A stretch of 64,000 nt of DNA, taken from IMG/VR virus record IMGVR_UViG_3300028886_000028, positions 1 to 64,000 of that record, one strand, 5' to 3'. A model generated the notes under the pieces. It made no database searches and was not told the origin of the DNA. It saw only the letters and a program-made list of their open reading frames with translations. Each line of letters begins with the position of its first letter. Within the stretch, counting starts at the first letter, position 1. Position numbers and translations under genes: made by a program. Positions 2,176-52,318 of this stretch are shown in pieces. The DNA comes from a virus (lineage: Duplodnaviria; Caudoviricetes).

Positions 2176-2207
2176 CAAATATACATAAAATATATAAAAT
2201 ATGCAAA
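2176..2207 (-). promoter_or_regulatory. Bacteroidota primary-sigma promoter
   Basis: TTTG-N20-TATATTTG, matching the -33 TTTG / -7 TAnnTTTG consensus. Confidence 0.7.
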
Positions 2208-2320: not shown

Positions 2321-4843
2321 TTATTTAATTTCTATGTGATTGTTATTACATGTAGCAGTGAAAGCATATTCCGGTTCATATTCATTTTCAAGAATCATAT
2401 CAGTTATTCTATCTTCAAGTGTATTTTGAACTATTCTTATTATTGGCCTTGCACCAAATTCTTTTTGCTTCATTGCTTCTTCATGTATATATGAAACAAC
2501 TGATTCATCGTATTTCAAATCATATTTTATTTCTTTGAGGCGTTTTCCAAACTTATTAATTTCAAGTTTAACAATTTCTTTTAAATTGTCATTTGTTAAT
2601 GAGTTGAAATAAATAATTTTATCAATTCTATTTAAAAATTCTGGAGTGAATTTTTTCTTTAATTCTTTTTCTATTATTGATTTTTTATTTTTAGATTCAT
2701 CAGTTACAAATCCAACTCCTTGCCCAAAATCTGACGCTTGTTTTGCTCCTACATTTGATGTCATTATAACTATTACGTTTTTAAAGTTAACCATTTGTCC
2801 GGAGCTATCTGTAAGCCTACCTTCATCGAACAACTGTAAAAATATGTTATAAACTTCTTGGTCAGCTTTTTCTATTTCGTCTAACAGTAAAACGCAATGC
2901 TGTTTGTGTTTAATAGCTTCTGTTAATTGGCCTCCATTTTCATAGCCTATATATCCTGGTGCTGCTCCTGTTAATTTTGCTACTGAACTTTTTTCTGAAT
3001 ATTCAGACATATCAATTCTTATTAACGCCTTTTCATCACCAAATATTTCTTCGGCTAGTTTTTTAGCAATAAGAGTTTTACCAACGCCAGACTGACCTGC
3101 AAATAATAAGTTAGCCATAGTTTTAGTTTTATCTCCAAGACCAACTTTATTTCTTTTTATAACTTTACAAAGTTCATTGACTGCCTCGTCTTGTCCTATT
3201 ACACATTCTTTTAATTTATCGTCTATATGTAATATTTTTTCTTTATCATTTGTTGATAATTTTGATATTGGAACATTTGTTATTTCTGATATGGTTTTTG
3301 AAATATCGTTTGAAAATATTTTTATTTTTTCTTTATCTGAAGAATTTTCTTTTCTTTTAAATTCATTGATGCGTCTTTTAACATCATTTTCTTCTATTGT
3401 TATCGCATCTATTTTTTCAAAATCACCATTATTTAGAATAATGTTTTTTTCATCCTCAATTTCATTTAACCTTTTCTTAAGCAAACTAAATTCATCAGAT
3501 TTAGAATTTTCCAAAGAAACATATGCCCCTGTTAAATCCATGACATCAAAAGCGGAATCTGGTAAACTTCTATCTGTTATATATCTTTCTGATAGTTCGG
3601 CACATTTTTTTAAAGAATCATCTGTATATTTTACATTATGAAATTCTTCGTAATATTTTTTACTGCTATTCAATATTTTTATGGTGTCTTCAACAGTGGA
3701 AGGCTCTATAACTATTCTTTGTAATTTGTTAGAAATACTAGGATTATTTTCAATGCAATTTCTATATTCTTTAAAAGAAGTAGTTCCGATAACTCTAACG
3801 TCACCTTCTGTAAGAATGTCGCTTATCATATTAGATATATCAGTATCTTTGTCTTTGCTACCGCCTTTTAATACTGATTGCATATCATCAATGAAAAGTA
3901 TATATTTATTGTTTGATTTTAATTCATCGAATAATCCTTTCACTCTTTCTTCAAACATACCTCTGAAGTGCGTTCCGCTAACTAAAGCCATTATGTTTAT
4001 TTCTACAATTTCTTTTCCTTCAAGTATTGTTGGCACATTTCCATTAATTATTTTTTGGGCTAATCCATAAACAATTTGAGTTTTTCCAACGCCTCCGTTG
4101 CCTATTAACACAACATTGTTTTTCTTTCTTCTAGCTAATACTTTAATAATTTGAGATAATTCACTATCTCTACCTACTAACTCGTCTATTTTACCTTTTT
4201 TAGCAAGCTCGTTTATGTTTGTTGTATATTTTCCTATAAATTCTCCCGCTGGTGAAACAGATGTAGTGTTTATTTCGCTTTTCAATGGTATTATTTGTTG
4301 CTTTGGCTGTTCTTTTTGTGAAAAACCATTATTATTAATGAAATTAATTCTCCTAACTGGTCTTGTTTTATTTTTATTATCTTTGCATTTGCTAAAAATC
4401 AGTTCATAGTCAATGCCAACTGTTTTAAAAATTTCTTGTATTTTTATTTCGTTGCTTGGATTTAATATTGAAAGTAACACATGTTCAGTTCCTATTTGAT
4501 TGGAGTTAGTTTTAAGTGCTTCTTTTTCAGCCCCATCCATTATTTTCGTTAATTCAAAATCAAACTCTACTTTTGTCATTCCATTTTCGCCTTTGATTTT
4601 ATTAACAATTGGCTTATTATTGTTCCTTAAAACTGATGTATAAATCTCCCTCAGTTCTTCCATGTTATTAGACATTAAGTAATTATCCAAAAACATATTA
4701 GCATGACATTTTTTAGTGTCTAAAATTGAAACGATAAGATACTCTGGCGTAAATACTTCTGTTGGAAATTCATTAACAAGAATATCAATCATATAAGAAA
4801 GAACTTCTTGTAGCTCGTAAGAATAATTTTTATTTTCTCCCAT
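2321..4843 (-). CDS. clpC: ClpA/ClpC-family AAA+ ATPase
   Basis: Clp N-domain, GNGGVGKT and GQSGVGKT Walker A motifs, RIDMSEY, GYIGY pore loop, LDEIEKA, VGF ClpP-docking-type loop. Confidence 0.9.
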   Translation of the reverse strand: MGENKNYSYELQEVLSYMIDILVNEFPTEVFTPEYLIVSILDTKKCHANMFLDNYLMSNNMEELREIYTSVLRNNNKPIVNKIKGENGMTKVEFDFELTKIMDGAEKEALKTNSNQIGTEHVLLSILNPSNEIKIQEIFKTVGIDYELIFSKCKDNKNKTRPVRRINFINNNGFSQKEQPKQQIIPLKSEINTTSVSPAGEFIGKYTTNINELAKKGKIDELVGRDSELSQIIKVLARRKKNNVVLIGNGGVGKTQIVYGLAQKIINGNVPTILEGKEIVEINIMALVSGTHFRGMFEERVKGLFDELKSNNKYILFIDDMQSVLKGGSKDKDTDISNMISDILTEGDVRVIGTTSFKEYRNCIENNPSISNKLQRIVIEPSTVEDTIKILNSSKKYYEEFHNVKYTDDSLKKCAELSERYITDRSLPDSAFDVMDLTGAYVSLENSKSDEFSLLKKRLNEIEDEKNIILNNGDFEKIDAITIEENDVKRRINEFKRKENSSDKEKIKIFSNDISKTISEITNVPISKLSTNDKEKILHIDDKLKECVIGQDEAVNELCKVIKRNKVGLGDKTKTMANLLFAGQSGVGKTLIAKKLAEEIFGDEKALIRIDMSEYSEKSSVAKLTGAAPGYIGYENGGQLTEAIKHKQHCVLLLDEIEKADQEVYNIFLQLFDEGRLTDSSGQMVNFKNVIVIMTSNVGAKQASDFGQGVGFVTDESKNKKSIIEKELKKKFTPEFLNRIDKIIYFNSLTNDNLKEIVKLEINKFGKRLKEIKYDLKYDESVVSYIHEEAMKQKEFGARPIIRIVQNTLEDRITDMILENEYEPEYAFTATCNNNHIEIK

Positions 4844-4888: not shown

Positions 4889-4901
4889 GTGGCAAAATAT
4901 T

Positions 4902-4931
4902 TTGTTTTTTGAAAAATTTTATGTATATTTG
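4902..4931 (+). promoter_or_regulatory. Bacteroidota primary-sigma promoter
   Basis: TTTG-N18-TATATTTG upstream of the ligase. Confidence 0.7.
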
Positions 4932-4954: not shown

Positions 4955-6067
4955 ATGGAATTACCGGTATTATATAAATTGAATATTAATAAAAAAATTA
5001 ATACATGGAAAATAATAATAGAAGAAAATTATTATTGGACTGAGTTTGGATTACTTGATGGAACAATACAAAAATCAGATAAGGTTTATTGTTTTGGCAA
5101 AAATAAAGGTAAGAAAAATGAAACAAATGATGAGCAACAAGCTTTGTTTGAAGCAAAGTCAATTTGGCTAAAAAAAATAAAAAAAGAAAATTTTTTTGAA
5201 AACGTTGAGAATGTTGCGAATATCACATTTAATCCGCCAATGCTAGCTAAAGTGTATGATGGAGAATATAAAGAAGAAATGAAATACATTCAGCCAAAAC
5301 TTGATGGAATAAGGTGCAATATTTCTATTGATGAAAACGGAAAAATAATTTCAAAAAGCAGAAAAAATAAAAACTTTTACACAACCACGCATATAGAAAA
5401 AGAACTACAAACTTTTTTTAAAGAATATCCTGATGCACATTTGGATGGAGAATTGTACAATCATAGCCTTCACAACGATTTCAATAAAATAGTTTCATTA
5501 GTAAAAAAACAAAAAATTAACGAAGATGATAGACAAAGCATCGAAAACACTGTATTGTATTATGTATATGACATTTGGCTTGACTCTTTACCTAATGCAA
5601 ATTTTAACAAAAGATTCAAAATTGTTAAAGAGTCATTGTTGCATCTGAAAAATGTAATAATTGTGCCGACGTTTAAAATAAACAGTTCAAAAGATATAGA
5701 TTATTATTTCAATATGTTTACTGATAATGGATATGAAGGGGCAATTATAAGATTAGACAATCCATATGAGCATAAAAGGAGCAAAAACTTATTGAAATAT
5801 AAAAAATTTAAAGATGATGAATTCGAAATAATAAAGGTTAACATAGGCAAAGCAAAGACTATAGCAGAGAGCATTACAATAAGGCTTAAAAATGGTAATT
5901 TATGTAACGCAACGCTTGCATTTAGTGATGATAAATGCAAAGAAATATTAGAAAATAAAGAAAAATACATAGGAAAATTGGCAACTGTTTGCTATTTTGG
6001 AGAAACAAATGATGGAATGTTAAGATTTCCGGTTGTTAAATCATTTAATAGAGAAGAGTATGAATAA
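4955..6067 (+). CDS. ATP-dependent DNA ligase
   Basis: PMLA, QPKLDGIRC (KxDG), LDGELY, GYEGAIIR, LLKYK, LRFP. Confidence 0.92.
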   Translation: MELPVLYKLNINKKINTWKIIIEENYYWTEFGLLDGTIQKSDKVYCFGKNKGKKNETNDEQQALFEAKSIWLKKIKKENFFENVENVANITFNPPMLAKVYDGEYKEEMKYIQPKLDGIRCNISIDENGKIISKSRKNKNFYTTTHIEKELQTFFKEYPDAHLDGELYNHSLHNDFNKIVSLVKKQKINEDDRQSIENTVLYYVYDIWLDSLPNANFNKRFKIVKESLLHLKNVIIVPTFKINSSKDIDYYFNMFTDNGYEGAIIRLDNPYEHKRSKNLLKYKKFKDDEFEIIKVNIGKAKTIAESITIRLKNGNLCNATLAFSDDKCKEILENKEKYIGKLATVCYFGETNDGMLRFPVVKSFNREEYE

Positions 6068-6221
6068 AAAGAAAAAATATGTGTATAAATCATATGATTA
6101 TTCATTTTATTATGAGTCTATTGTAACCAAAATTTTTAAAAAAACTATTGGAAGCGAGTTGATAAAAACAACTTTAATGGATTTGCCAGTTGGCAAATTA
6201 TTTTATTTCGATTTAGAATAA
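6060..6221 (+). CDS. 53-aa mini-paralog of major capsid protein residues about 76-106
   Basis: SIVTKIFKKTIGSELIKTTLMDLPVGKLFYF aligns without gaps to MCP PIIRRVFSKLLANDIVSVQAMNLPVGKLFFI. Confidence 0.65.
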   Translation: MNKKKKYVYKSYDYSFYYESIVTKIFKKTIGSELIKTTLMDLPVGKLFYFDLE

Positions 6222-6241: not shown

Positions 6242-6700
6242 ATGGCAAAAAAATTTAATGTTTATTGTAATAATGTTGATAAAACTTGGTATGACAGTTC
6301 AAATATAGTGTATACTGAGTGTATTGACAATGATAACGAGCCAAAAACTTTGAAAGTAGTTTTTTCTAATGGCACTCAATACCAATATAATAATGTTAAC
6401 GTTAATGATTATTTGCTATTAAGAGAAAGTCAATCCCAAGGCAAATCGCTCAATAGGTTAATTAAAGAAAAAAAATATGATTATGTTAAATTAGAAAATG
6501 CGGATTTAAATTCTATAGAAGAAGAACTTTTTTTTAGAAGTAAAAATGGTTTTTATATTGAAAATAATGAAACCGGTTTTGAAATAAAAAATAATAAAGA
6601 TGAAAGTGTATTCAAAATTTCAAAGCAATTAGATAACGAATGTTTTGAAATGGTTAATGATATTCTTAAATCTGTAGGAATAATAACTAAAATTGTTTGA
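6242..6700 (+). CDS. KTSC-domain protein
   Basis: SSNI...TLKVVFSNGTQYQYNNV...SQGK pattern. Confidence 0.7.
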   Translation: MAKKFNVYCNNVDKTWYDSSNIVYTECIDNDNEPKTLKVVFSNGTQYQYNNVNVNDYLLLRESQSQGKSLNRLIKEKKYDYVKLENADLNSIEEELFFRSKNGFYIENNETGFEIKNNKDESVFKISKQLDNECFEMVNDILKSVGIITKIV

Positions 6701-6701
6701 T

Positions 6702-6932
6702 ATGGGAGAAATATTACAAGAATGTATTGTTGAGTTTAGAATAGTGTGTGAAACATTATTTTTAACATTTTTAATTCTTAAATTAACAGATGTAGTCGCA
6801 TGGTCTTGGTGGTGGATATTTTCACCAATATTAGCGGTAATGGCATTAATATTATTTTTTTTAATTGCGTTTATAATTTTCAAACATTATGGAAAAAAAC
6901 GAGAGGAAGAAACTGTATCAGAAAGCAATTGA
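6702..6932 (+). CDS. Small two-TM membrane protein
   Basis: LILKLTDVVAWSWWWIFSPI and a second hydrophobic helix. Confidence 0.65.
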   Translation: MGEILQECIVEFRIVCETLFLTFLILKLTDVVAWSWWWIFSPILAVMALILFFLIAFIIFKHYGKKREEETVSESN

Positions 6933-6998
6933 TACTTGGGGTATGATGAATATGAAAAATAAAAAGAGTTCAAATTAGATAGGTTAAAAAAAGGCTAG
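6889..6998 (+). pseudogene. Internally deleted MazG-like gene remnant
   Basis: MEKNERKKLYQKAIDTWG joined out of frame to YDEYEK*KEFKLDRLKK, resembling the two ends of phage MazG-like proteins. Confidence 0.45.
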
Positions 6999-7013
6999 AA
7001 AAATATTGATAGT

Positions 7014-7586
7014 ATGGATATAAAAACGAATGTTAATGTTATACAAGAGACTACATGGAAAAGGGCATTAAATGCGGCTAGGAGAACAATTGGTAAAGAG
7101 CCAATAGATAAAGAACCAAGTAATAATTGGAAGGCTAGTGTATTACTTGCTGAACATTCTCCGATAAAACTTGTTGAATATCTTATTTCATATAAGGATT
7201 TAAGGCAATGGGTTGGGGTACACTTATTGAGGCATGATTTTACATTACCATTTATACATTCTCAAAGAGAAGATAGAAGAAAACTTGAATGTGATAGGGA
7301 TGAATTACCTCAAGGAACTCCAAATGACCAAGATTTTGTTGTTAATGCACAAACATTAAAAAATATTTCTAGGAAAAGATTATGTAATTGTGCTTCAAAA
7401 GAAACAAGAGAGGCTTGGCAAATGGTAAAGGATGAAATAAAGAAGTTTGACCCTATTATGGCCGACAAAATGGTTAGGAATTGCGTATATTGCGGCTTTT
7501 GCCCGGAACTTAAGTGTTGTGGGTTTGTGAATACTGATGAATATAAGAAAGAATTAGAGGCTTATAGGAAAAAGGACTACGATTAA
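7014..7586 (+). CDS. thyX: ThyX/Thy1-like FAD-dependent thymidylate synthase
   Basis: EHSP, HLLRH...SQR motif, RLC..A..ETR. Confidence 0.75.
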   Translation: MDIKTNVNVIQETTWKRALNAARRTIGKEPIDKEPSNNWKASVLLAEHSPIKLVEYLISYKDLRQWVGVHLLRHDFTLPFIHSQREDRRKLECDRDELPQGTPNDQDFVVNAQTLKNISRKRLCNCASKETREAWQMVKDEIKKFDPIMADKMVRNCVYCGFCPELKCCGFVNTDEYKKELEAYRKKDYD

Positions 7587-27514: not shown

Positions 27515-29551
27515 ATGAGAGAATTTTTAACAAGCGGACAAGTTGGTAATATTGAACTTAACGCTCAGAAAAAAATACGTGAGGACATTCAGAATCGTTG
27601 GGACTCTCTAGGCTTTACCGAAGGTCTTGATGGTAACATTAAAGAGAATGTCGCTACGTTGTTTGAGAATGAGGCAAAGCACTTGATTTATGAGGCTACT
27701 GCTTCTGATAACAGCGGTTCATTTGAAACTGTTGTTTTCCCTATTATCCGTCGTGTATTCAGCAAGCTTCTTGCTAACGACATTGTATCAGTTCAGGCTA
27801 TGAACCTTCCTGTTGGTAAGTTGTTCTTTATCCTTCCTGTTACTTCAGAAAGAGAATGGGCACTTCCAGAGAGCTATTCAGGCGAAACAGAACCAGGCGA
27901 TATAGTAGATGGTACAACTGGACGTCATAAAGGTCTTATGGGTTATGACCGCGTTAACCGTAATCAGGGTGGACGTATCGACCCAAGATATTATCTTCCA
28001 GATGAGACAATTAACGAACTCGAAAAGAAATTCGTTAAAATCAATCCAGCTATCGAAGCAGGTGAAGACGAGTATGCAGATGGCTATGCTCTTGCACAAG
28101 CAGTGAAAGAAGACCCAACAATTCCTGCAACAAACTATCGTCAGGCAGGCCCTGAGGTTACACAGTACTTCCAGAAGAGTCTTTATGATTTATTCTATAA
28201 TGACTTCCTTTATGACAACTCTAAGGGTAAGGTAACTATTAAAGTTGGCGCAGCTGTTCCTGTAATGCTTACACCAATGGGTATTCGTCCATTTGGCGCA
28301 GATAACCTTAACAAATATTTCAAGAGTGGCTTCGATGGAACTGTTCGTAACATTATCCTTGAAGTTGATGGCTTCTCAGCATTTAACGCAGGTCGTTTAA
28401 CCGGTCCTGATGGAAATGAAATGGATACAGAAGGATTCCTTGCTTCATTGAAAGTTGTCACAATGAAAGAACTTGCTTCTGCTCCAGTTGCTGATGGTTC
28501 AGCAGTTATGACTTCAGCTTTCCGTAAGTTTGAGTCAATCCCATTCCGTGTAGTTACACAAAAATATGGTAAAGGTATTGTAGAGTATGATGGCATTTGC
28601 GATGCAGAAGGTAAGATTTATCTTGAACTTGACCTCGCTAAACCAGTTGTACAGCAAGCAGGTACTATTGATGGCTATATTGGTGTAGATTCAAATGCTC
28701 TTGATGCCGCAATTTCATCAGGTAGCACAGAGGAAACTAAAGAGGCAATTGCTGCATTGTTCAAGGTTGCTTGGGCACAGTATGATTCTCTTGAACTTGA
28801 AACTGAAATCGGTGAGGTTTCATTCAAACTCGATAGCGTAACTGTTGCTGTTGAAGAAAGAAAACTTCGTGCTACATGGTCTCCAGAACTTGCACAAGAC
28901 GTTTCTGCATTCCACAACATCGACGCAGAGGCTGAGTTGACAGCTATCCTTTCAGAGCAGATTGCTGCTGAAATTGACCGTGAAATACTCCGTGACCTTC
29001 GTAAAGGAGCACCTTGGCAAGCACGTTGGGATGTTAACGGTTGGAGAAGAATGGCTGCATTCTCTACTAACTACACTCAGAAAGACTGGAACCAGGAGTT
29101 ATTCACAAAGATTAACCAGATTTCAGCACAGATTCATAAAGCAACTCTTCGTGGTGGTGCAAACTTCATTGTAGTATCTTCTGAGATTTCTGCATTGTTC
29201 GATAACCTTGAGTTCTTCCATGTTTCTGACGCATCTGCTGAAAGCGACCAGTACAACATGGGTATCGAAAAAATCGGTACATTGAGTGGACGTTATCAGG
29301 TCTATCGTGACCCATATAGCCCTCACTGGTCTATTATCATTGGCCATAAAGGAAAGAGCCTTCTTGACACTGGCTACATTTACGCACCATATGTGCCAAT
29401 GCAGTTGACTCCAACAATTATTAATCCATTCAACTTTGCACCAGTAAAGGGTATTATGACGCGTTATGCGAAGAAGATGGTCAATAATCGCTATTACGGG
29501 CACGTTCGCGTGGATGGACTTGTTCACTGGCCAGTTTCAGAGTTAAGATAA
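27515..29551 (+). CDS. Major capsid protein (T4 gp23-like)
   Basis: VSVQAMNLPVG, RKLRATWSPELAQD, DAEAEL..ILS..I..EIDREI, YAPYVP, GIMTRY; strong codon bias; likely cleavage at LIYE|A (E60). Confidence 0.95.
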   Translation: MREFLTSGQVGNIELNAQKKIREDIQNRWDSLGFTEGLDGNIKENVATLFENEAKHLIYEATASDNSGSFETVVFPIIRRVFSKLLANDIVSVQAMNLPVGKLFFILPVTSEREWALPESYSGETEPGDIVDGTTGRHKGLMGYDRVNRNQGGRIDPRYYLPDETINELEKKFVKINPAIEAGEDEYADGYALAQAVKEDPTIPATNYRQAGPEVTQYFQKSLYDLFYNDFLYDNSKGKVTIKVGAAVPVMLTPMGIRPFGADNLNKYFKSGFDGTVRNIILEVDGFSAFNAGRLTGPDGNEMDTEGFLASLKVVTMKELASAPVADGSAVMTSAFRKFESIPFRVVTQKYGKGIVEYDGICDAEGKIYLELDLAKPVVQQAGTIDGYIGVDSNALDAAISSGSTEETKEAIAALFKVAWAQYDSLELETEIGEVSFKLDSVTVAVEERKLRATWSPELAQDVSAFHNIDAEAELTAILSEQIAAEIDREILRDLRKGAPWQARWDVNGWRRMAAFSTNYTQKDWNQELFTKINQISAQIHKATLRGGANFIVVSSEISALFDNLEFFHVSDASAESDQYNMGIEKIGTLSGRYQVYRDPYSPHWSIIIGHKGKSLLDTGYIYAPYVPMQLTPTIINPFNFAPVKGIMTRYAKKMVNNRYYGHVRVDGLVHWPVSELR

Positions 29552-29576: not shown

Positions 29577-29609
29577 AAAGGGCAACGTTTTTGTTGCTCT
29601 TTTTTTTTT
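29577..29609 (+). terminator. Terminator after MCP
   Basis: aaaagggcaac-gtttt-tgttgctctttttttttt. Confidence 0.8.
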
Positions 29610-29637
29610 GTTTTTTAAAATATTTTTTGTATATTTG
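29607..29637 (+). promoter_or_regulatory. Bacteroidota primary-sigma promoter
   Basis: TTTG-N19-TATATTTG. Confidence 0.65.
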
Positions 29638-30970: not shown

Positions 30971-33490
30971 ATGTCAAAAAAATATATGAATACACTGGAC
31001 TTTTATGGTTACAGAGAAAACAATATGATGGAATCAACATTTGATTCATCTTATACAGTAAGTGTATCAGACAAAGATGGTAACATAATAACAATTGAGA
31101 AGGGCAATTCTCTTTATGCTTGTGTTAAATTGGCATTTGACACAAACACAGGTATTTTGAGTTTACTTGATGCCGCTCATAATGATTCTGTTCTTGCTGA
31201 AGTCGAAATGCCAAATGCTGATTATATCTACAATTGTAGATTTGACGAAGAAAAGAATGCCATTCTATTTGATGTCAAGTCTCTTTATGGCGATAATACC
31301 GATACTATAGAACTTGATGTTGAAAGTTTGGTAGAACTTTACGAAGCCGGTCAAGGTATTGAAATTGGTGAGAAAAGCGAAGAAACTGGAAGAAGACCAA
31401 TTAACGTTAAACTTGCAGAGGAAAATGGTTTACTCACATTAACTGATGAAGGGCTTGGCATTGATGGCAAAGTTGTTACAGAAGATGAGCTTGATGCTGC
31501 AATAAGTGGAAAGGCTGATGCTGAATGGGTTGAAGAAATATTATCAGGTTTAACTGGTGTTACTGAAATTATTGAATTGGTCGAAGAACACGAAGATGAA
31601 ATTGAGAAGTTAAAGAAAATTGTCGGTACTGAAGAAGAAGTTCCTTCACTTTTTGAACAAATAGAAAGCAATAGAGAAGATGTTTCTGAGCTTGATGGAG
31701 AAATTGGAGAGATTAGTGGAGTAGTAGGAACGATTGAAAACAATCTTTCAACGATAGTTGGTGATGTAGAGTTGTTAAAAGATAAACTTGATGAAGAAGT
31801 GGCAAGAACAATCAGTGCTGAAACAGAACTTAATGAGAAGTTATGTGAAGAAATAGAGGCTCGTAAGTCTGGTTCAGTAGTAAGTGCTGATTATGATTCT
31901 ACAGAAAAGTTGATTATTTTCTACAACGCGAATGATGAAGTCATTGATTCAATTGATGCTACTGCATTTATTAAAGATGGCATGGTTGATTCAGTGGAAC
32001 TTGTGAAAATATCTGGTAGTACATATTTACGCATAGTATTCAATACTGATGCCGGTAAAGATGACCTATATATTAATATAGGTGACATATTCAATACTGA
32101 TAATTATTATACAAAAAGTGAAATTAATGAATTAAAAGATGAAATAATAACGATTATCAGTGACGATGAGGAAACTGTTGCTGTTGCATTAGGAGACCTT
32201 AATGTTAGAAAACTTGATATTTCAGCATATACACCGGCTGATTTTTCAAATTATTATACTAAAGGACAGGTCGATACTAAGGTAAGTGATATTAACAATT
32301 CAATATCAGCAGTGCAAAGGTCAGTAACAAATCTTGATTTTAAAAAGTTAGATGCTAGTGCTTATACACCAACAGACCTTTCTGACTATTATACTAAGGA
32401 GGAAACAAACAATAAATTAAGTAAGAAACTTGATACCAGCGCTTATACCCCAACTGATTTATCTGATTATTATACTAAAGAAGATGTAAACTATAAATTA
32501 AGCGAAAAACTTGATACAAGTGCTTATACACCGGTTGATTTATCTGATTATTACACAAAAGAAAATGTTAATGATATAATAATAGAAAATGAAGAAATAA
32601 TATCTGCTGCGTTGAATGATTTAAAACATAGTAAATTAGACTCAAGTGCTTATACGCCTGTTGATTTGTCTGATTACTATACAAAAGAAGACGTTAATGC
32701 AATTATAATAGACGATGAAGAGGTAATAAGTTCAGCATTAAATGATTTAAAAAGTAATAAGTTAGACATTAGTGCATATACACCAGTTGATTTATCTGAT
32801 TATTATACTAAAGAAGAAACAAACGATGAATTAGATAATAAATTAGACATATCAGCTTATACGCCAACAGACCTTTCGAATTATTATACTAAGGAAGATA
32901 CAAGTGCGTCAACTGAAATTTCTGACGCATTGGAAGAAAAGGTTAATTATCAAGAGTATATTTCGCATGCCATCAATTCTGATTTGCATTTCAATGGTTC
33001 TGAAAAAGAAAATCTTGACTCTCTAGAAGCAAATATTACTGCAATAAGTGGAATTTCATCTACTAATGTCGGTAATTGGAATGATGCATATGATAAAAAA
33101 CATATTCACGATAATAAATCGTATATTGATTCTATAAGTGGAAATGTTGGGACTATGGCTTATGAAAGCACAAATACATATTCAAGTGCTACGCAAGTTA
33201 ATACTGCATTGTCAGATAAGGCAGATATTTCAGCAGTTACAGAAGCCATTAGCAACATAACAATTACTTCTAATGCTGTAATTTCTATGGGTAATTATAT
33301 TATAGCAGAAAGTGGAACTCCAATAGCAGATTCAGATACTCTTAATCAGGCAATAGGAAAACTTGAAAAGATGATTGAAGAACTAAAATTATATATCAAT
33401 AGCATTAAAGATATTATAATTGACAATGAAGAAATTACAGCGGCTTCATTAAATGAACTTGATAATAGGATTAAACTTTTGGAGGAATAA
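30971..33490 (+). CDS. Fibre/coiled-coil virion protein A
   Basis: Paralogous N-terminus with 39121; seven KLD.SAYTP.DLSDYYTK repeats. Confidence 0.75.
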   Translation: MSKKYMNTLDFYGYRENNMMESTFDSSYTVSVSDKDGNIITIEKGNSLYACVKLAFDTNTGILSLLDAAHNDSVLAEVEMPNADYIYNCRFDEEKNAILFDVKSLYGDNTDTIELDVESLVELYEAGQGIEIGEKSEETGRRPINVKLAEENGLLTLTDEGLGIDGKVVTEDELDAAISGKADAEWVEEILSGLTGVTEIIELVEEHEDEIEKLKKIVGTEEEVPSLFEQIESNREDVSELDGEIGEISGVVGTIENNLSTIVGDVELLKDKLDEEVARTISAETELNEKLCEEIEARKSGSVVSADYDSTEKLIIFYNANDEVIDSIDATAFIKDGMVDSVELVKISGSTYLRIVFNTDAGKDDLYINIGDIFNTDNYYTKSEINELKDEIITIISDDEETVAVALGDLNVRKLDISAYTPADFSNYYTKGQVDTKVSDINNSISAVQRSVTNLDFKKLDASAYTPTDLSDYYTKEETNNKLSKKLDTSAYTPTDLSDYYTKEDVNYKLSEKLDTSAYTPVDLSDYYTKENVNDIIIENEEIISAALNDLKHSKLDSSAYTPVDLSDYYTKEDVNAIIIDDEEVISSALNDLKSNKLDISAYTPVDLSDYYTKEETNDELDNKLDISAYTPTDLSNYYTKEDTSASTEISDALEEKVNYQEYISHAINSDLHFNGSEKENLDSLEANITAISGISSTNVGNWNDAYDKKHIHDNKSYIDSISGNVGTMAYESTNTYSSATQVNTALSDKADISAVTEAISNITITSNAVISMGNYIIAESGTPIADSDTLNQAIGKLEKMIEELKLYINSIKDIIIDNEEITAASLNELDNRIKLLEE
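32209..32900 (+). repeat. Seven coding repeats KLDxSAYTPxDLSDYYTKE
   Basis: Seen in the translation. Confidence 0.85.
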
Positions 33491-39120: not shown

Positions 39121-41553
39121 ATGTCAAAAAAATATATAAATACTCTAGATTTTTATGGCTACGGAGAAAGTAATAAAATGGAGCCGGCATTAGGTTCATC
39201 TTACAAGGTAAAGGTATCAGACAAGGATGGAAATATCATTACCATTGAAAAAGATGGGTCTCTTTATGCTTGTGTTAAATTGGCATTTGACACAAACACA
39301 GGTATTTTGAGTTTACTTGATGCTGCCCATAATGATTCTGTTCTCGCGGAGGTAGAAATGCCTAATGCTGATTACATTTATAATTGCAGATTTGATGAAG
39401 AGTTAAATGCAATTTTATTTGATGTAAAATCTCTTTATGGCGATAATACAGATACCATAGAACTTGATGTTGAAAGTTTGGTAGAACTTTACGAAGCCGG
39501 CCAAGGTATTGAAATTGGCGAGAAAAATGAAGAGACCGGTAGAAAGCCAATTAGTGTTAAACTCGTTGAAGGGGAAGATTTACTTACTTTAACAGATGAT
39601 GGACTTGGTATTGATGATTCAGTTGTTACCGAGGATGAACTTTATGCTGCTATTAGCGGAAAAGCGGACATTTCATATGTTAACGAACTTTTTTATGGCA
39701 TTAGTGGAATAACTTCAGGCATTACTGATATACTTGAAGAGCATGAAACTGAAATAGAAAAGTTAAAAAGAATTGTTGGTACTGAAGAAGAAATTCCTTC
39801 ACTTTTTGAACAAATAGAAAGCAATAGAGAAGATATTTCTGAACTTGATGGAGAAATTGGCGATATTAGTGGGGCAGTAAACACAATATCTGAAAAGGTA
39901 GATAGCATTGAAAATAATATTGATTCATTAAATGATACTGTTAATTCATTATCTGATGATGTTGATGACCTTAGAGAGGCAATAGAAAAAGAAGTTGAAA
40001 GAGCAACGTCAGCAGAAACGGATTTAAGAATTTCAGTGGAAGTCGAAGAAGGTAGAGCAATAAGTGCGGAAACTGTATTAACAGAAAGAATTACTGGAGA
40101 AGAAAATGCGAGAAAAGAGTCTTCAGTGTCTGATGTTGTATATAATTCTTCAGCAAAAACAATTAATTTCTTTAATGAAAATGGAAACATTATAACTTCA
40201 ATTGACACTACTGATTTCATTAAAGATGGTATGGTTAAGTCTGTTGCTATTGAAACAGTAGATGACACTACTTATTTGGTAATAACGTGGAATACTGACG
40301 CTGGTATTGAAGAAACGAGAATTAATCTTGGAGATTTATTTGATGCTGACGATTATTACACAAAGGCAGAGATAGATTCAAAAATTGACGAATTACATAG
40401 CACAGATGATGAACTTGCTCAGGCAAACGAAAGACAATGGAGTGCTATAACCCAAAACAGGGAAGAAATTAACGATGTTGACCAAAATATTCGTTATCTT
40501 ATTTCTCAAGAAGCAGAATCTAGAGAAAACGAGGATAATAATTTATGGGAAGCATTAAGAACAGAGACAAATGAACGCACTACTTCAGATGCTTCTTTGC
40601 AAGCACAAATAAATGCAGAAGCAGAAGAAAGAAGAGCGAAAGACACTCAATTAGAAAACGCAATCGCAGATGAAAGAAGAGAAAGAATATCCGATATTAC
40701 TGATACAAGAAATCAAGTTATTTCAGGTATTACGAATCTTCAAATACAATTAACTGCTGAAGTACAAAGAGCTCAAGGAGAAGAAGGCAGAATAGACGCA
40801 AAATATGATGGTGCTATAACTGATTTAAGAAATGCAGATATAATAATAAACCAACATATTGATGACCAAGATGCTATAATTAATCGTAGAATAGATGGTG
40901 TCGTTTCTGACTTAGAAGTTGAACAAAACACAAGGCAAACTGCTGATTTGGAAATGTCAAATGATATTAATTATATCAGGAGAAATTATGCTACAGTAGA
41001 ATATGTAGATAATCAAGATGATAATTTCAAAGAAGCCGCAATTCAAACATCAACAGGATATGCTAAATCTTATACAGATACTGAGGTAGATAGATTAGAA
41101 GTAGCATTAAAAAGATATTGCGATTCAGGGCACACGGAACTTCAGCATGAAATAAGTGATAATGCTACTAAAATTAATGCAATATCAAGCCTTAGAGGAG
41201 TAACCGGTAGTAATATAAGTAATTATGACGATTCTGGAAATGGTATTTTAGATGTACTACATCGTGAATTCCACTATCACATTACACATGATGGCTCTAT
41301 TAAAGAAATATATTACGAAGATGGTAATATAATTATTATATATGAAACACCTTATGGAGAAAAATCAGCAACAATACCGGTTAGTACAGTAGTTGATTTA
41401 AGAGATTATTATAAGAAGAATGAAGTAGATGCCCTTCTTGATAATAAAGCGAATGTGACAGATTTAAATGGTGAAATACAAAGAGCAACCGAAGCAGAAA
41501 GATTGTTGAATGAAAAAATTGATAATCTTGATATTGATGGAGGTATATACTAG
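39121..41553 (+). CDS. Fibre/coiled-coil virion protein B
   Basis: Paralog of 30971; E..R...D coiled-coil repeats; ends IDGGIY. Confidence 0.75.
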   Translation: MSKKYINTLDFYGYGESNKMEPALGSSYKVKVSDKDGNIITIEKDGSLYACVKLAFDTNTGILSLLDAAHNDSVLAEVEMPNADYIYNCRFDEELNAILFDVKSLYGDNTDTIELDVESLVELYEAGQGIEIGEKNEETGRKPISVKLVEGEDLLTLTDDGLGIDDSVVTEDELYAAISGKADISYVNELFYGISGITSGITDILEEHETEIEKLKRIVGTEEEIPSLFEQIESNREDISELDGEIGDISGAVNTISEKVDSIENNIDSLNDTVNSLSDDVDDLREAIEKEVERATSAETDLRISVEVEEGRAISAETVLTERITGEENARKESSVSDVVYNSSAKTINFFNENGNIITSIDTTDFIKDGMVKSVAIETVDDTTYLVITWNTDAGIEETRINLGDLFDADDYYTKAEIDSKIDELHSTDDELAQANERQWSAITQNREEINDVDQNIRYLISQEAESRENEDNNLWEALRTETNERTTSDASLQAQINAEAEERRAKDTQLENAIADERRERISDITDTRNQVISGITNLQIQLTAEVQRAQGEEGRIDAKYDGAITDLRNADIIINQHIDDQDAIINRRIDGVVSDLEVEQNTRQTADLEMSNDINYIRRNYATVEYVDNQDDNFKEAAIQTSTGYAKSYTDTEVDRLEVALKRYCDSGHTELQHEISDNATKINAISSLRGVTGSNISNYDDSGNGILDVLHREFHYHITHDGSIKEIYYEDGNIIIIYETPYGEKSATIPVSTVVDLRDYYKKNEVDALLDNKANVTDLNGEIQRATEAERLLNEKIDNLDIDGGIY

Positions 41554-52288: not shown

Positions 52289-52318
52289 CAAATATACAAA
52301 AAATTGTTAAAAAACAAA
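52289..52318 (-). promoter_or_regulatory. Bacteroidota primary-sigma promoter
   Basis: TTTG-N18-TATATTTG. Confidence 0.7.

Follow-up and report, generated by a model that had tools for sequence, protein, structure and literature searches.

The 53-codon open reading frame at positions 6060–6221 (plus strand) of the window, the 64,000-nucleotide stretch analysed here from the genome of a 401-kb cattle-gut phage, is very probably a real gene under selection. It belongs to a family in which a short, constant and tyrosine-rich N-terminal handle is followed by a copy of a block from the N-terminal arm (N-arm) of the gp23-type major capsid protein (MCP). This family was undescribed before, and automatic pipelines label its members as "major capsid protein" domains; our literature search found no description of natural stand-alone capsid-fragment genes. 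The mini-gene starts with an ATG at 6060 and ends with a TAA at 6219–6221 (translation MNKKKKYVYKSYDYSF...DLPVGKLFYFDLE). The ATG is located in GAGTATGAATAA, and the start therefore overlaps the stop codon (6065–6067) of the gene for an ATP-dependent DNA ligase (4955–6067, plus strand; Pfam DNA_ligase_A_M, E 2.4e-19), just as a preliminary description of this DNA had stated. The ligase gene is found in some relatives only. Downstream lies a KTSC-domain gene (6242–6700, plus strand; Pfam KTSC, E 7e-9), which is the conserved neighbour on this side at all loci examined and overlaps the end of the mini-gene in several relatives. A divergently transcribed gene for a ClpB/ClpC-like double AAA+ protein (2321–4843, minus strand) forms the conserved left border of this accessory spot. 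The mini-gene is surrounded by DNA-metabolism genes and lies outside the head module.

Upstream of the ligase, mini-gene and KTSC operon, a Bacteroidota-type promoter consensus, TTTG-N19-TAtaTTTG, occurs at 4901–4931 (plus strand) as a consensus match only. The host-sigma promoter of the preliminary description amounts to this match, and early timing is only putative; 9 copies of the simple pattern occur in the window against 5.3 expected, so it is not overrepresented. An extended motif is common to four copies, and across the genome TAnnTTTG precedes long ORFs more often than expected (15% versus 5%). Two cattle-gut metatranscriptome runs gave exact contigs for the ligase (5631–5781) and the thyX region (6919–7129 and 7329–7557) and no contig over 6060–6221; the data consist of contigs and may include carried-over DNA.

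The MCP gene (27515–29551, plus strand; Pfam Gp23, E 9e-74; T4 gp23 structures, E about 1e-27) is present in single copy and is the sole Gp23-family gene of the 401-kb genome. Residues 20–50 of the mini-protein (6117–6209, plus strand) align without gaps to MCP residues 76–106 (27740–27832, plus strand), with 11 of 31 positions identical, including M.LPVGKLF. This match, first noticed in the preliminary description, was reproduced, and both BLASTP (mini-protein 2–49 against MCP 52–105, E 8e-8) and shuffling agree with it: the Smith–Waterman score against the MCP is 79, shuffled sequences score 29.4 ± 4.5, and none of 2000 reaches 79 (z = 11). Three family members gave z values of 11, 11.3 and 16.9 against shuffles. 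The gapped part of the BLASTP alignment that extends into the handle (mini-protein 2–19 against MCP 52–75) is probably spurious, because the handle is also found on proteins without any MCP part. When the mini-protein was searched against all six frames of the 401-kb genome, only itself and the MCP block were recovered (E 7.9e-5). With hhalign, the family profile matches MCP residues 72–110 with a probability of 94% (E 9e-8), and it matches the MCP N-arm in all ten related jumbo genomes (E 7e-11 to 2.5e-9).

The 53-aa protein represents only Gp23 profile positions of about 3–48, and it gives no match to Pfam Gp23 (PF07068) even at E up to 10; its homology therefore rests on BLASTP, the shuffles and the profile comparison. 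Its orthologue P0004 scores 19.3 bits against Gp23 (E 8.5e-4; gathering score 24.4), and the long family members score 27–41 bits, above the gathering score, some with two stretches. Among PHROG families, the mini-protein and three long members match none except the major head protein family. A weak Pfam match of the mini-protein to WD40_APC4 (E 0.013, below the cut-off) was dismissed as chance. In the 401-kb genome, the mini-gene shows no nucleotide similarity to the MCP gene, and a recent origin by duplication or gene conversion there was therefore rejected.

The copied block coincides with a well-known segment of the T4 capsid protein. The T4 gp23 propeptide has 65 residues (PMC9958956). 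MCP residues 72–109 align to residues 28–65 of mature T4 gp23*, equal to residues 93–130 of the precursor. Gol, which we take to be gp23 residues roughly 93–122, falls within this range, and the mini-gene corresponds to it in sequence; the proposed equivalence of the MCP block to T4 Gol is thus borne out. Gol belongs to the Gol/Lit protease/EF-Tu exclusion system of prophage e14, in which it binds domains II–III of EF-Tu and so enables Lit to cleave EF-Tu; the mini-gene copies this very block of the gp23 family. Gol is also the most conserved segment of gp23 (PMC3014915), like the copied block in the present MCP lineage, where MCP residues 76–106 are almost invariant across 47 MCPs of 58–94% identity. 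However, Gol is a segment inside a full capsid protein, whereas the mini-gene stands alone, has a start codon of its own and adds a foreign handle; and since the free Gol peptide activates a defence, an effect of the mini-protein, if any, might go in either direction. The mini-gene block retains the MCP-invariant M96, P99, G101, L103 and D89, and in 77 diverse members the MCP-like block has M in 97%, P in 99%, G in 100% and L in 92%. It is not a faithful MCP copy, because the family has its own invariants, T85 and G87, where every MCP has L and A; together with E98, these are systematic differences of the family from every MCP.

A search for homologues, whose absence the preliminary description had regarded as fatal to its proposal, found at least 80 clusters of proteins, 53–184 aa long and from uncultured phages, all of which have a start Met of their own and the handle. 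The architecture is an invariant N-terminal motif, K[YF]xYxSYDYSFL, followed by the MCP N-arm block. In the window the handle reads KYVYKSYDYSF (residues 6–16; 6075–6107, plus strand), and it is the most conserved part of the family: in 70 sequences, Y9, Y12 and Y14 are invariant and K6, D13 and F16 are at least 90% conserved. The handle is absent from the MCP. Typical members are 110–170 aa long and have a second MCP block, the ORF at 6060–6221 being the shortest form of the family. This second block is colinear with the MCP and consists of a helix and an RGxANF strand (MCP 526–566); in the 10 members carrying the motif, the second stretch maps to MCP residues 521–566. The long members end in a strongly basic tail that is predicted as a confident helix, and the short forms have no basic tail. 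C-terminal parts have been lost repeatedly, as the short forms P0031, P0048 and P0001 arise in different long-form subgroups.

The mini-protein alone is predicted to be one short helix and coil, not a fold (AlphaFold2, pTM 0.20), and a long form is modelled as three helices (pTM 0.27). The complete HK97-type fold, with its A and P domains, is not found in the 53-aa protein. The T4 capsid vertex protein gp24, a paralogue of gp23, is likewise a second MCP-derived gene in one phage genome; however, gp24 retains the full length and the complete HK97-type fold and forms the vertices, whereas the mini-proteins have one or two short blocks in 53–184 aa. The 401-kb genome has no gp24-like second Gp23 gene.

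The handle also carries other payloads. It is common to ORF A of relatives and to ORF G000:125151–125444, and ORF A is a copy of a fibre-like protein repeat module (z up to 11.3). In the relative L010, the handle heads a piece of the MCP spine-helix block, a 77-nt patch with 86% DNA identity to the MCP gene; this piece is a second MCP block that was captured independently, and apparently freshly, behind the same handle. P0006, a 923-aa repeat protein from the exhaustive search, was dismissed as unrelated low-complexity repeats. A DNA-pattern scan of viral_contigs for the handle gave 0 matches, and a profile-guided scan was swamped by MCP matches.

The mini-gene is selected as a protein. Compared with a 98%-identical strain, it has 6 synonymous and 2 non-synonymous changes (binomial p = 0.003); dN/dS is 0.07–0.52 in 7 of 10 pairs with estimable dS; and conserved residues of both the handle and the block show synonymous codon variation among relatives. 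The dN/dS values, a check suggested in the preliminary description, indicate purifying selection at the protein level and not neutral decay. At the same time, the mini-gene is the fastest-evolving among the genes compared here: it is 48% identical to its orthologue, and the MCP is 94%, ThyX 92%, the ligase 70% and the KTSC protein 69% identical. Strain differences are also enriched in the mini-gene ORF (p = 0.03 and 0.002). The gene is absent from ten related jumbo genomes (100–412 kb), and it is therefore an accessory insertion, dispensable in sister phages of the same size. In two of these ten genomes, ClpB lies near KTSC and the interval lacks a mini-gene: the two genes are directly adjacent in one genome and separated by an unrelated 123-aa ORF in the other. 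Being small, fast-evolving, variably present and placed in an accessory spot that conserved genes flank, the mini-gene has the profile of anti-defence genes.

It is highly improbable that the mini-gene acts as a nucleic acid, either as a terminator or attenuator hairpin or as a template for recombination with the MCP gene, and not as a protein. A terminator-like hairpin does lie over the DLPVGKL codons (6180–6199, plus strand), and L010 contains an MCP DNA patch. However, two non-compensating changes (6183 and 6194) break the hairpin stem in the 98%-identical strain, and relatives encode the DLPVGKL motif with other codons and have no hairpin there; it was rejected as a functional terminator and judged incidental. 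A template role is at odds with the mini-gene and the MCP gene having no nucleotide similarity in the 401-kb genome. Conservation tracks the reading frame, and the codon evidence largely refutes this reading.

For the function of the protein, we tentatively propose, as the leading reading, that it may be a trans-acting molecular mimic of the capsid block. The copied segment would bind whatever normally recognises new or unassembled MCP, and the handle would supply a second function or stop the fragment from behaving as a real capsid protein. The N-terminal region of T4 gp23 is located inside the prohead, where the scaffolding core is its probable contact, and becomes the N-arm at a later stage (PMC9546572); the partners of this region in T4, transferred here by homology, are probably the scaffolding core and then neighbouring subunits and the portal whisker (PMC9546572, PMC9958956). 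It is established that protein fragments can inhibit their parents by titration (PMC9245647, PMC11831152), and through its homology to the N-arm block the mini-gene would encode an interaction surface of the kind that an inhibitory fragment needs. Engineered dominant-negative fragments (Savinov et al. 2022, PMC9245647; FragFold 2025, PMC11831152) are also short and occupy the interaction sites of their parent, a mechanism that we infer for the present case; they are laboratory constructs of E. coli proteins, whereas the mini-genes are natural and selected, have an added handle, and inhibit only putatively. If mimicry is correct, the partner could be, with roughly equal chances, a host factor, such as a capsid-sensing defence, EF-Tu or a chaperone, or the head-assembly machinery of the phage itself or of a co-infecting T4-like rival.

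Several observations speak against mimicry. Conservation is highest in the handle and not in the MCP-like block, T85 and G87 of the family differ from all MCPs, and the gene is dispensable in same-size sister phages. For a host sensor as the partner, the difficulty is that known gp23 sensors are switched on by such segments, so an early mimic could harm the phage; for head assembly, it is that the phage would also put its own capsid at risk by mimicking the most conserved block. A complex prediction with the mature MCP (59–678, 47-row alignment) and the mini-protein (69-row alignment) scored 0.01, with the mark at 0.32, which speaks neither for nor against binding.

Three other explanations have to be weighed. 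Considering the exact positional equivalence to Gol, the mini-protein might be a decoy made early against host immunity: it would occupy EF-Tu or a capsid-sensing defence, Lit-like or other, but would not activate it. Capsid proteins are documented defence triggers (PMC9712102; 10.1101/2024.02.24.581662), accessory, fast-evolving and variably present genes are typical of counter-defence, and the differences at T85, G87 and E98 from every MCP could separate binding from activation. Nevertheless, we regard such a decoy as unlikely. For Lit, the free Gol peptide is enough to switch it on (PMC3014915), and CmdTAC responds when newly made gp23 binds the chaperone of this system (10.1101/2024.02.24.581662); if a mimic were faithful and made early, such sensors would therefore be expected to fire, not to fall silent. 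A decoy also fails to explain why the same handle carries a fibre-module fragment. The Lit family (Pfam PF10463) had no match in two Ruminococcus genomes or in 300 genomes sampled from their class, a search in which the control genomes were also silent and the host group may differ. The gene might instead encode a head protein that is packaged, its N-arm-like block being a targeting signal that binds the scaffolding core as the MCP N-terminus does, with no competition or mimicry; the mini-protein and the basic-tailed long forms would enter the prohead as internal or minor capsid proteins. Indeed, the N-terminus of T4 gp23, up to about residue 105, is located within the prohead before expansion, with the core as its probable contact (PMC9546572), and T4 internal proteins reach the core via a short N-terminal targeting sequence (PMC9958956). 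The strongly basic, predicted helical tail of the long members agrees with such a role. T4 internal protein genes are located away from the head genes, and those of IPII and IPIII lie outside the T4 head module. IPII and IPIII are, like this family, small proteins in which a short and conserved tag at the N-terminus precedes a variable body; however, their tag ends at a prohead-protease site (Glu), and the mini-gene payload, unlike theirs, is a copy of a virion-protein block. In the handle, the second Tyr is followed by Q, K, T or V, in occasional cases by E, and there is no conserved Glu further on; thus, it does not have the L/I-x-E tag of T4 capsid-targeting-sequence proteins. The short forms without the basic tail, the location among DNA-metabolism genes behind a host-type promoter consensus and outside the head module, and the absence from sister phages also make a packaged head protein improbable.

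The last explanation takes the mini-gene as a historical remnant, in which a partial MCP duplication was fused to a small gene; only the handle or the neighbours would be functional, and the MCP part would be a linker or kept by inertia. The conservation of the handle above all other segments, the repeated C-terminal losses (P0031, P0048 and P0001) and the widely varying lengths are consistent with this. However, the block keeps the MCP-invariant residues in 77 members, with synonymous codon turnover and dN/dS below 1, the short forms retain exactly the MCP-like block at a divergence where the ligase is only 70% identical, and a second MCP block has been captured independently behind the same handle; a remnant is quite doubtful on these grounds.

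Extending mimicry in trans to the whole family, it is conceivable, though we consider it rather unlikely, that huge T4-related phages keep libraries of "handle plus payload" mini-genes, in which captured virion blocks act as interfering or decoy peptides. The payloads would be blocks that virion proteins cannot mutate (the capsid N-arm with Gol, the capsid spine helix and the fibre module), new ones would be acquired when recombination copies parts of structural genes of the same phage, with L010 as an apparently fresh example, and the targets would be host immune sensors or the assembly of rival phages. If true, phages would have a new class of weapon, one built on self-mimicry.

Bacterial immunity is now known to be triggered commonly by capsid proteins, whose most conserved blocks have little room to mutate and evade it. 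Even if the function of the mini-gene proves trivial, the present work documents an unannotated family that is labelled automatically as "major capsid protein" domains, and the freshly captured capsid patch in L010 gives a view of how such genes arise. The family may also offer natural peptides, tested by evolution, that bind the partners of the gp23 N-arm, among them EF-Tu, whose interaction with Gol has long been unexplained. A stand-alone block that is selected and joined to a constant handle suggests that phages exploit conserved capsid blocks in trans; they might use them to blunt sensing, to manipulate EF-Tu or a chaperone, to steer their own head assembly or to sabotage competitors.

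The mini-gene (6060-6221, +) encodes 53 residues. The window in which it lies covers the initial 64 kb of a virus record of 401,138 bp that is rated complete; the public runs that match best are cattle-gut metagenomes. The ATG of the mini-gene is located in GAGTATGAATAA and so shares bases with the stop codon of the preceding gene, an ATP-dependent DNA ligase (4955-6067, +; Pfam DNA_ligase_A_M, E 2.4e-19). A KTSC-domain gene (6242-6700, +) follows on the 3' side, small membrane ORFs and thyX (7014-7586, uninterrupted in the window) lie downstream as well, and a divergent ClpB/ClpC-like AAA+ gene (2321-4843, -) lies upstream.

The mini-protein resembles one block of the gp23-type major capsid protein (MCP; 27515-29551; Pfam Gp23, E 9e-74), the sole Gp23 protein in the genome. 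The gapless core of 11/31 identities (nt 6117-6209 against 27740-27832) reported in the preliminary description was reproduced, and it is backed by BLASTP (mini-protein 2-49 against MCP 52-105, E 8e-8) and by a local alignment score of 79, which is 11 SD over 2000 shuffles and was reached by none of them. Searching the entire genome in all six frames with the mini-protein returned only its own ORF and this MCP block. The proposed equivalence to the T4 Gol segment also holds: Gol (gp23 residues 93-122) falls inside the precursor segment 93-130 aligned to the MCP. MCP 72-109 aligns to mature T4 gp23* 28-65, and adding the 65-residue propeptide (PMC9958956) gives precursor 93-130, which covers the 29-residue Gol region (PMC3014915). 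No nucleotide similarity was found between the mini-gene and the MCP gene, and the LPVGKLF common to both proteins is written in differing codons; the copy is therefore old and has been maintained at the protein level.

By its sequence relatives, the mini-gene is a gene-family member and not a stray fragment. The preliminary description had named a lack of homologs as a ground for refuting its proposal; word-indexed and exhaustive protein searches gave six relatives at first, and a profile search gave 80 clusters at E <=0.01 with lengths of 53-184 aa. All members have their own Met and a near-invariant N-terminal K[YF]xYx[SR]YDYSFL, a Tyr-rich handle foreign to the MCP, followed by the block P.A.KVAAKTIGFDLxTVxPMNEPxGQLF[YW]FD. 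The family profile matches MCP 72-110 (probability 94%, E 9e-8) and the MCP N-arm in 10/10 related jumbo-phage genomes (E 7e-11 to 2.5e-9). Long members score 27-41 bits, over the Pfam Gp23 gathering score, some with two stretches; in members with the motif SN.I...S.RG.ANY.VT, this second stretch corresponds to MCP 521-566 (10/10 members tested, z up to 8.5), and many long forms carry a basic, aromatic C-terminal tail. A typical member is thus a drastically shortened, colinear MCP skeleton behind a foreign handle, and the copy in the window is its minimal form. Short forms occur inside several long-form subgroups (for example, clusters P0031 beside P0019 and P0048 beside P0018). T85 and G87 are invariant and the family's own, every MCP having L and A there; most members have T4-type I86, F88, P95 and Q102, where all 47 lineage MCPs have invariant L, N, A and K; at four other columns, members share lineage-specific residues with the MCPs. 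The source of the block may be an old duplication, a foreign MCP or selection. Such short proteins also form clusters of 50-99 in the ESM Atlas, where they bear the automatic name 'Gp23 domain-containing'; only the MCP family was matched in PHROGs, the INPHARED cultured phages gave MCP matches and no mini-gene, and we found no account of natural stand-alone capsid-fragment genes in the literature.

The handle occurs on other bodies, which indicates a separate module with exchangeable payloads. ORF A, which is absent from the window and often lies 5' of the mini-gene in relatives (53-77 aa; contigs L013:5796-6008, L017:4787-5008 and L009:54-254), begins with the same handle, and its remainder matches a ~75-residue repeat module (..FIKDGMIDSV..LVITWNTDAGK..GDIF..DNYY) of the phage's large fibre-like proteins, with z = 11.3, 8.9 and 6.6 for three ORF A proteins. 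This module, for which no Pfam family was found, is present in the proteins encoded at 30971-33487 and 39121-41550 (module at ~31922-32104 and ~40171-40344) and in three ORFs at 204.8-211.6 kb (whole-genome positions 204781-211603). In another relative (L010:474-677, Logan contig SRR33322325_741032), the ORF that separates the ligase from the mini-gene carries the handle in front of the MCP spine-helix block (residues 458-497, z = 21). Over 77 nt its DNA shares 86% identity with the MCP gene of the window (compare 28928-29004), and a degenerate second copy of the ligase 3' end comes next (compare 6003-6068), which suggests that capsid-gene DNA was captured recently by illegitimate recombination. 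Cluster P0083, obtained from a different sample, combines this form with a normal mini-protein in one hybrid. Outside the window, a 97-aa ORF (125151-125444 of the whole genome) starting MDKFNYKIYDYS has the same handle, and its body has no other match in the genome. The handle on MCP block, fibre module and spine-helix block points to one design, in which the handle stays constant and is joined to a copied, conserved block of a virion protein.

The gene is under constraint, and the neutral decay considered in the preliminary description does not describe it. Against the 98%-identical strain L001, there are 6 synonymous and 2 non-synonymous changes (p = 0.003 under neutrality), and for the 7/10 pairs that allowed an estimate of dS, Nei-Gojobori dN/dS across the initial ~60 codons lies at 0.07-0.52. 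Judged by identity to the relative G001 (MCP 94%, ThyX 92%, ligase 70%, KTSC 69%, mini-protein 48%), it evolves fast. Local strain differences fall inside the ORF at 8/24 and at least 9/31 in two close strains (p = 0.03 and 0.002), and one strain change brings back the family-typical Pro before Met. AlphaFold2 models from a 70-row family alignment gave no compact fold: the 53-aa form has one helix at 21-30 (MCP 77-86) and otherwise coil (pLDDT 70, pTM 0.20), and a 139-aa form has three helices (pLDDT 72, pTM 0.27). The models agree with a peptide that would be shaped on binding a partner.

The mini-gene lies between the ClpB-like and KTSC genes in every locus examined and shares a few bases with its neighbours; the ligase occurs in some of these loci only. 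Its accessory nature is confirmed by its absence from 10/10 related genomes (100-412 kb, MCP identity 51-85%): in G002, ClpB and KTSC are directly adjacent, and in G004, only an unrelated 123-aa ORF separates them. The thyX of G001 is interrupted by ~345 nt (L004:5064-5406, IMGVR_UViG_3300028591_000210), which match the group I intron model RF00028 at 39.2 bits (E 1.5e-8), short of its gathering score of 50. A terminator-like hairpin (6180-6199) coincides exactly with the stretch that codes for the conserved DLPVGKL; one close strain has it disrupted and relatives do not conserve it, so it is probably a chance effect of codon choice.

A match to the Bacteroidota-type promoter consensus TTTG-N19-TAtaTTTG lies at 4901-4931 (+). 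The pattern alone shows no enrichment (9 in the window versus 5.3 expected); an extended promoter-like motif of the Bacteroidota -33/-7 type, TTTG(T/C)..TTTT.TGTATATTTG, has four copies in the window, at 4901-4931 (+), 29607-29637 (+), 52289-52318 (-) and 2176-2207 (-), one of them directly 3' of the MCP gene. Genome-wide, TAnnTTTG is enriched upstream of long ORFs (15% versus 5%) and Shine-Dalgarno cores are depleted (3.5% versus 8.5%), consistent with a Bacteroidota host. However, host signals conflict, as the ClpB/ClpC-like protein finds its top bacterial matches in Ruminococcus (42%). A 4.9-kb contig (JAEEHF010000054.1) that was binned to a 'Bacillota' MAG encodes a 78%-identical copy, but this contig is probably phage DNA placed in the wrong bin.

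The N-terminal part of T4 gp23, to about residue 105, has no ordered structure in the prohead, where it probably contacts the scaffolding core, and later shifts outward as the N-arm linking adjacent subunits; N-arm mutations alter head length, and Met98 helps portal anchoring (PMC9546572, PMC9958956). The Gol block is an EF-Tu binder and an activator of Lit (PMC3014915), freshly synthesised gp23 triggers CmdTAC via a SecB-like chaperone (10.1101/2024.02.24.581662), and protein fragments can block their parents by partner titration (PMC9245647, PMC11831152). Considering this literature, and a copied N-arm block that is selected, fast-evolving, accessory and unfolded, we propose as the best reading, though a tentative one, that the mini-protein may be a trans-acting mimic of the capsid block. 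Counting against this, the handle is better conserved than the MCP-like block, the family has its own T85/G87 and mixed T4-type residues at four columns, and a segment of this kind activates the known gp23 sensors.

The immune-decoy proposal of the preliminary description is partly supported: it keeps its Gol equivalence, conservation and accessory nature, which are borne out by alignment, family, selection and the ten genomes without the gene; its specific form, a putative Lit/EF-Tu-type decoy, is unlikely. It is likewise improbable that the product is a head protein packaged in the virion. A remnant, whose MCP-derived part would have no function, is more doubtful still. Synonymous codons vary at conserved residues of handle and block. 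A nucleic-acid element is very hard to credit. As a trans-acting mimic of the MCP N-arm block, the mini-protein would target host factors or, with equal plausibility, head assembly, whether that of its own phage or of a rival.
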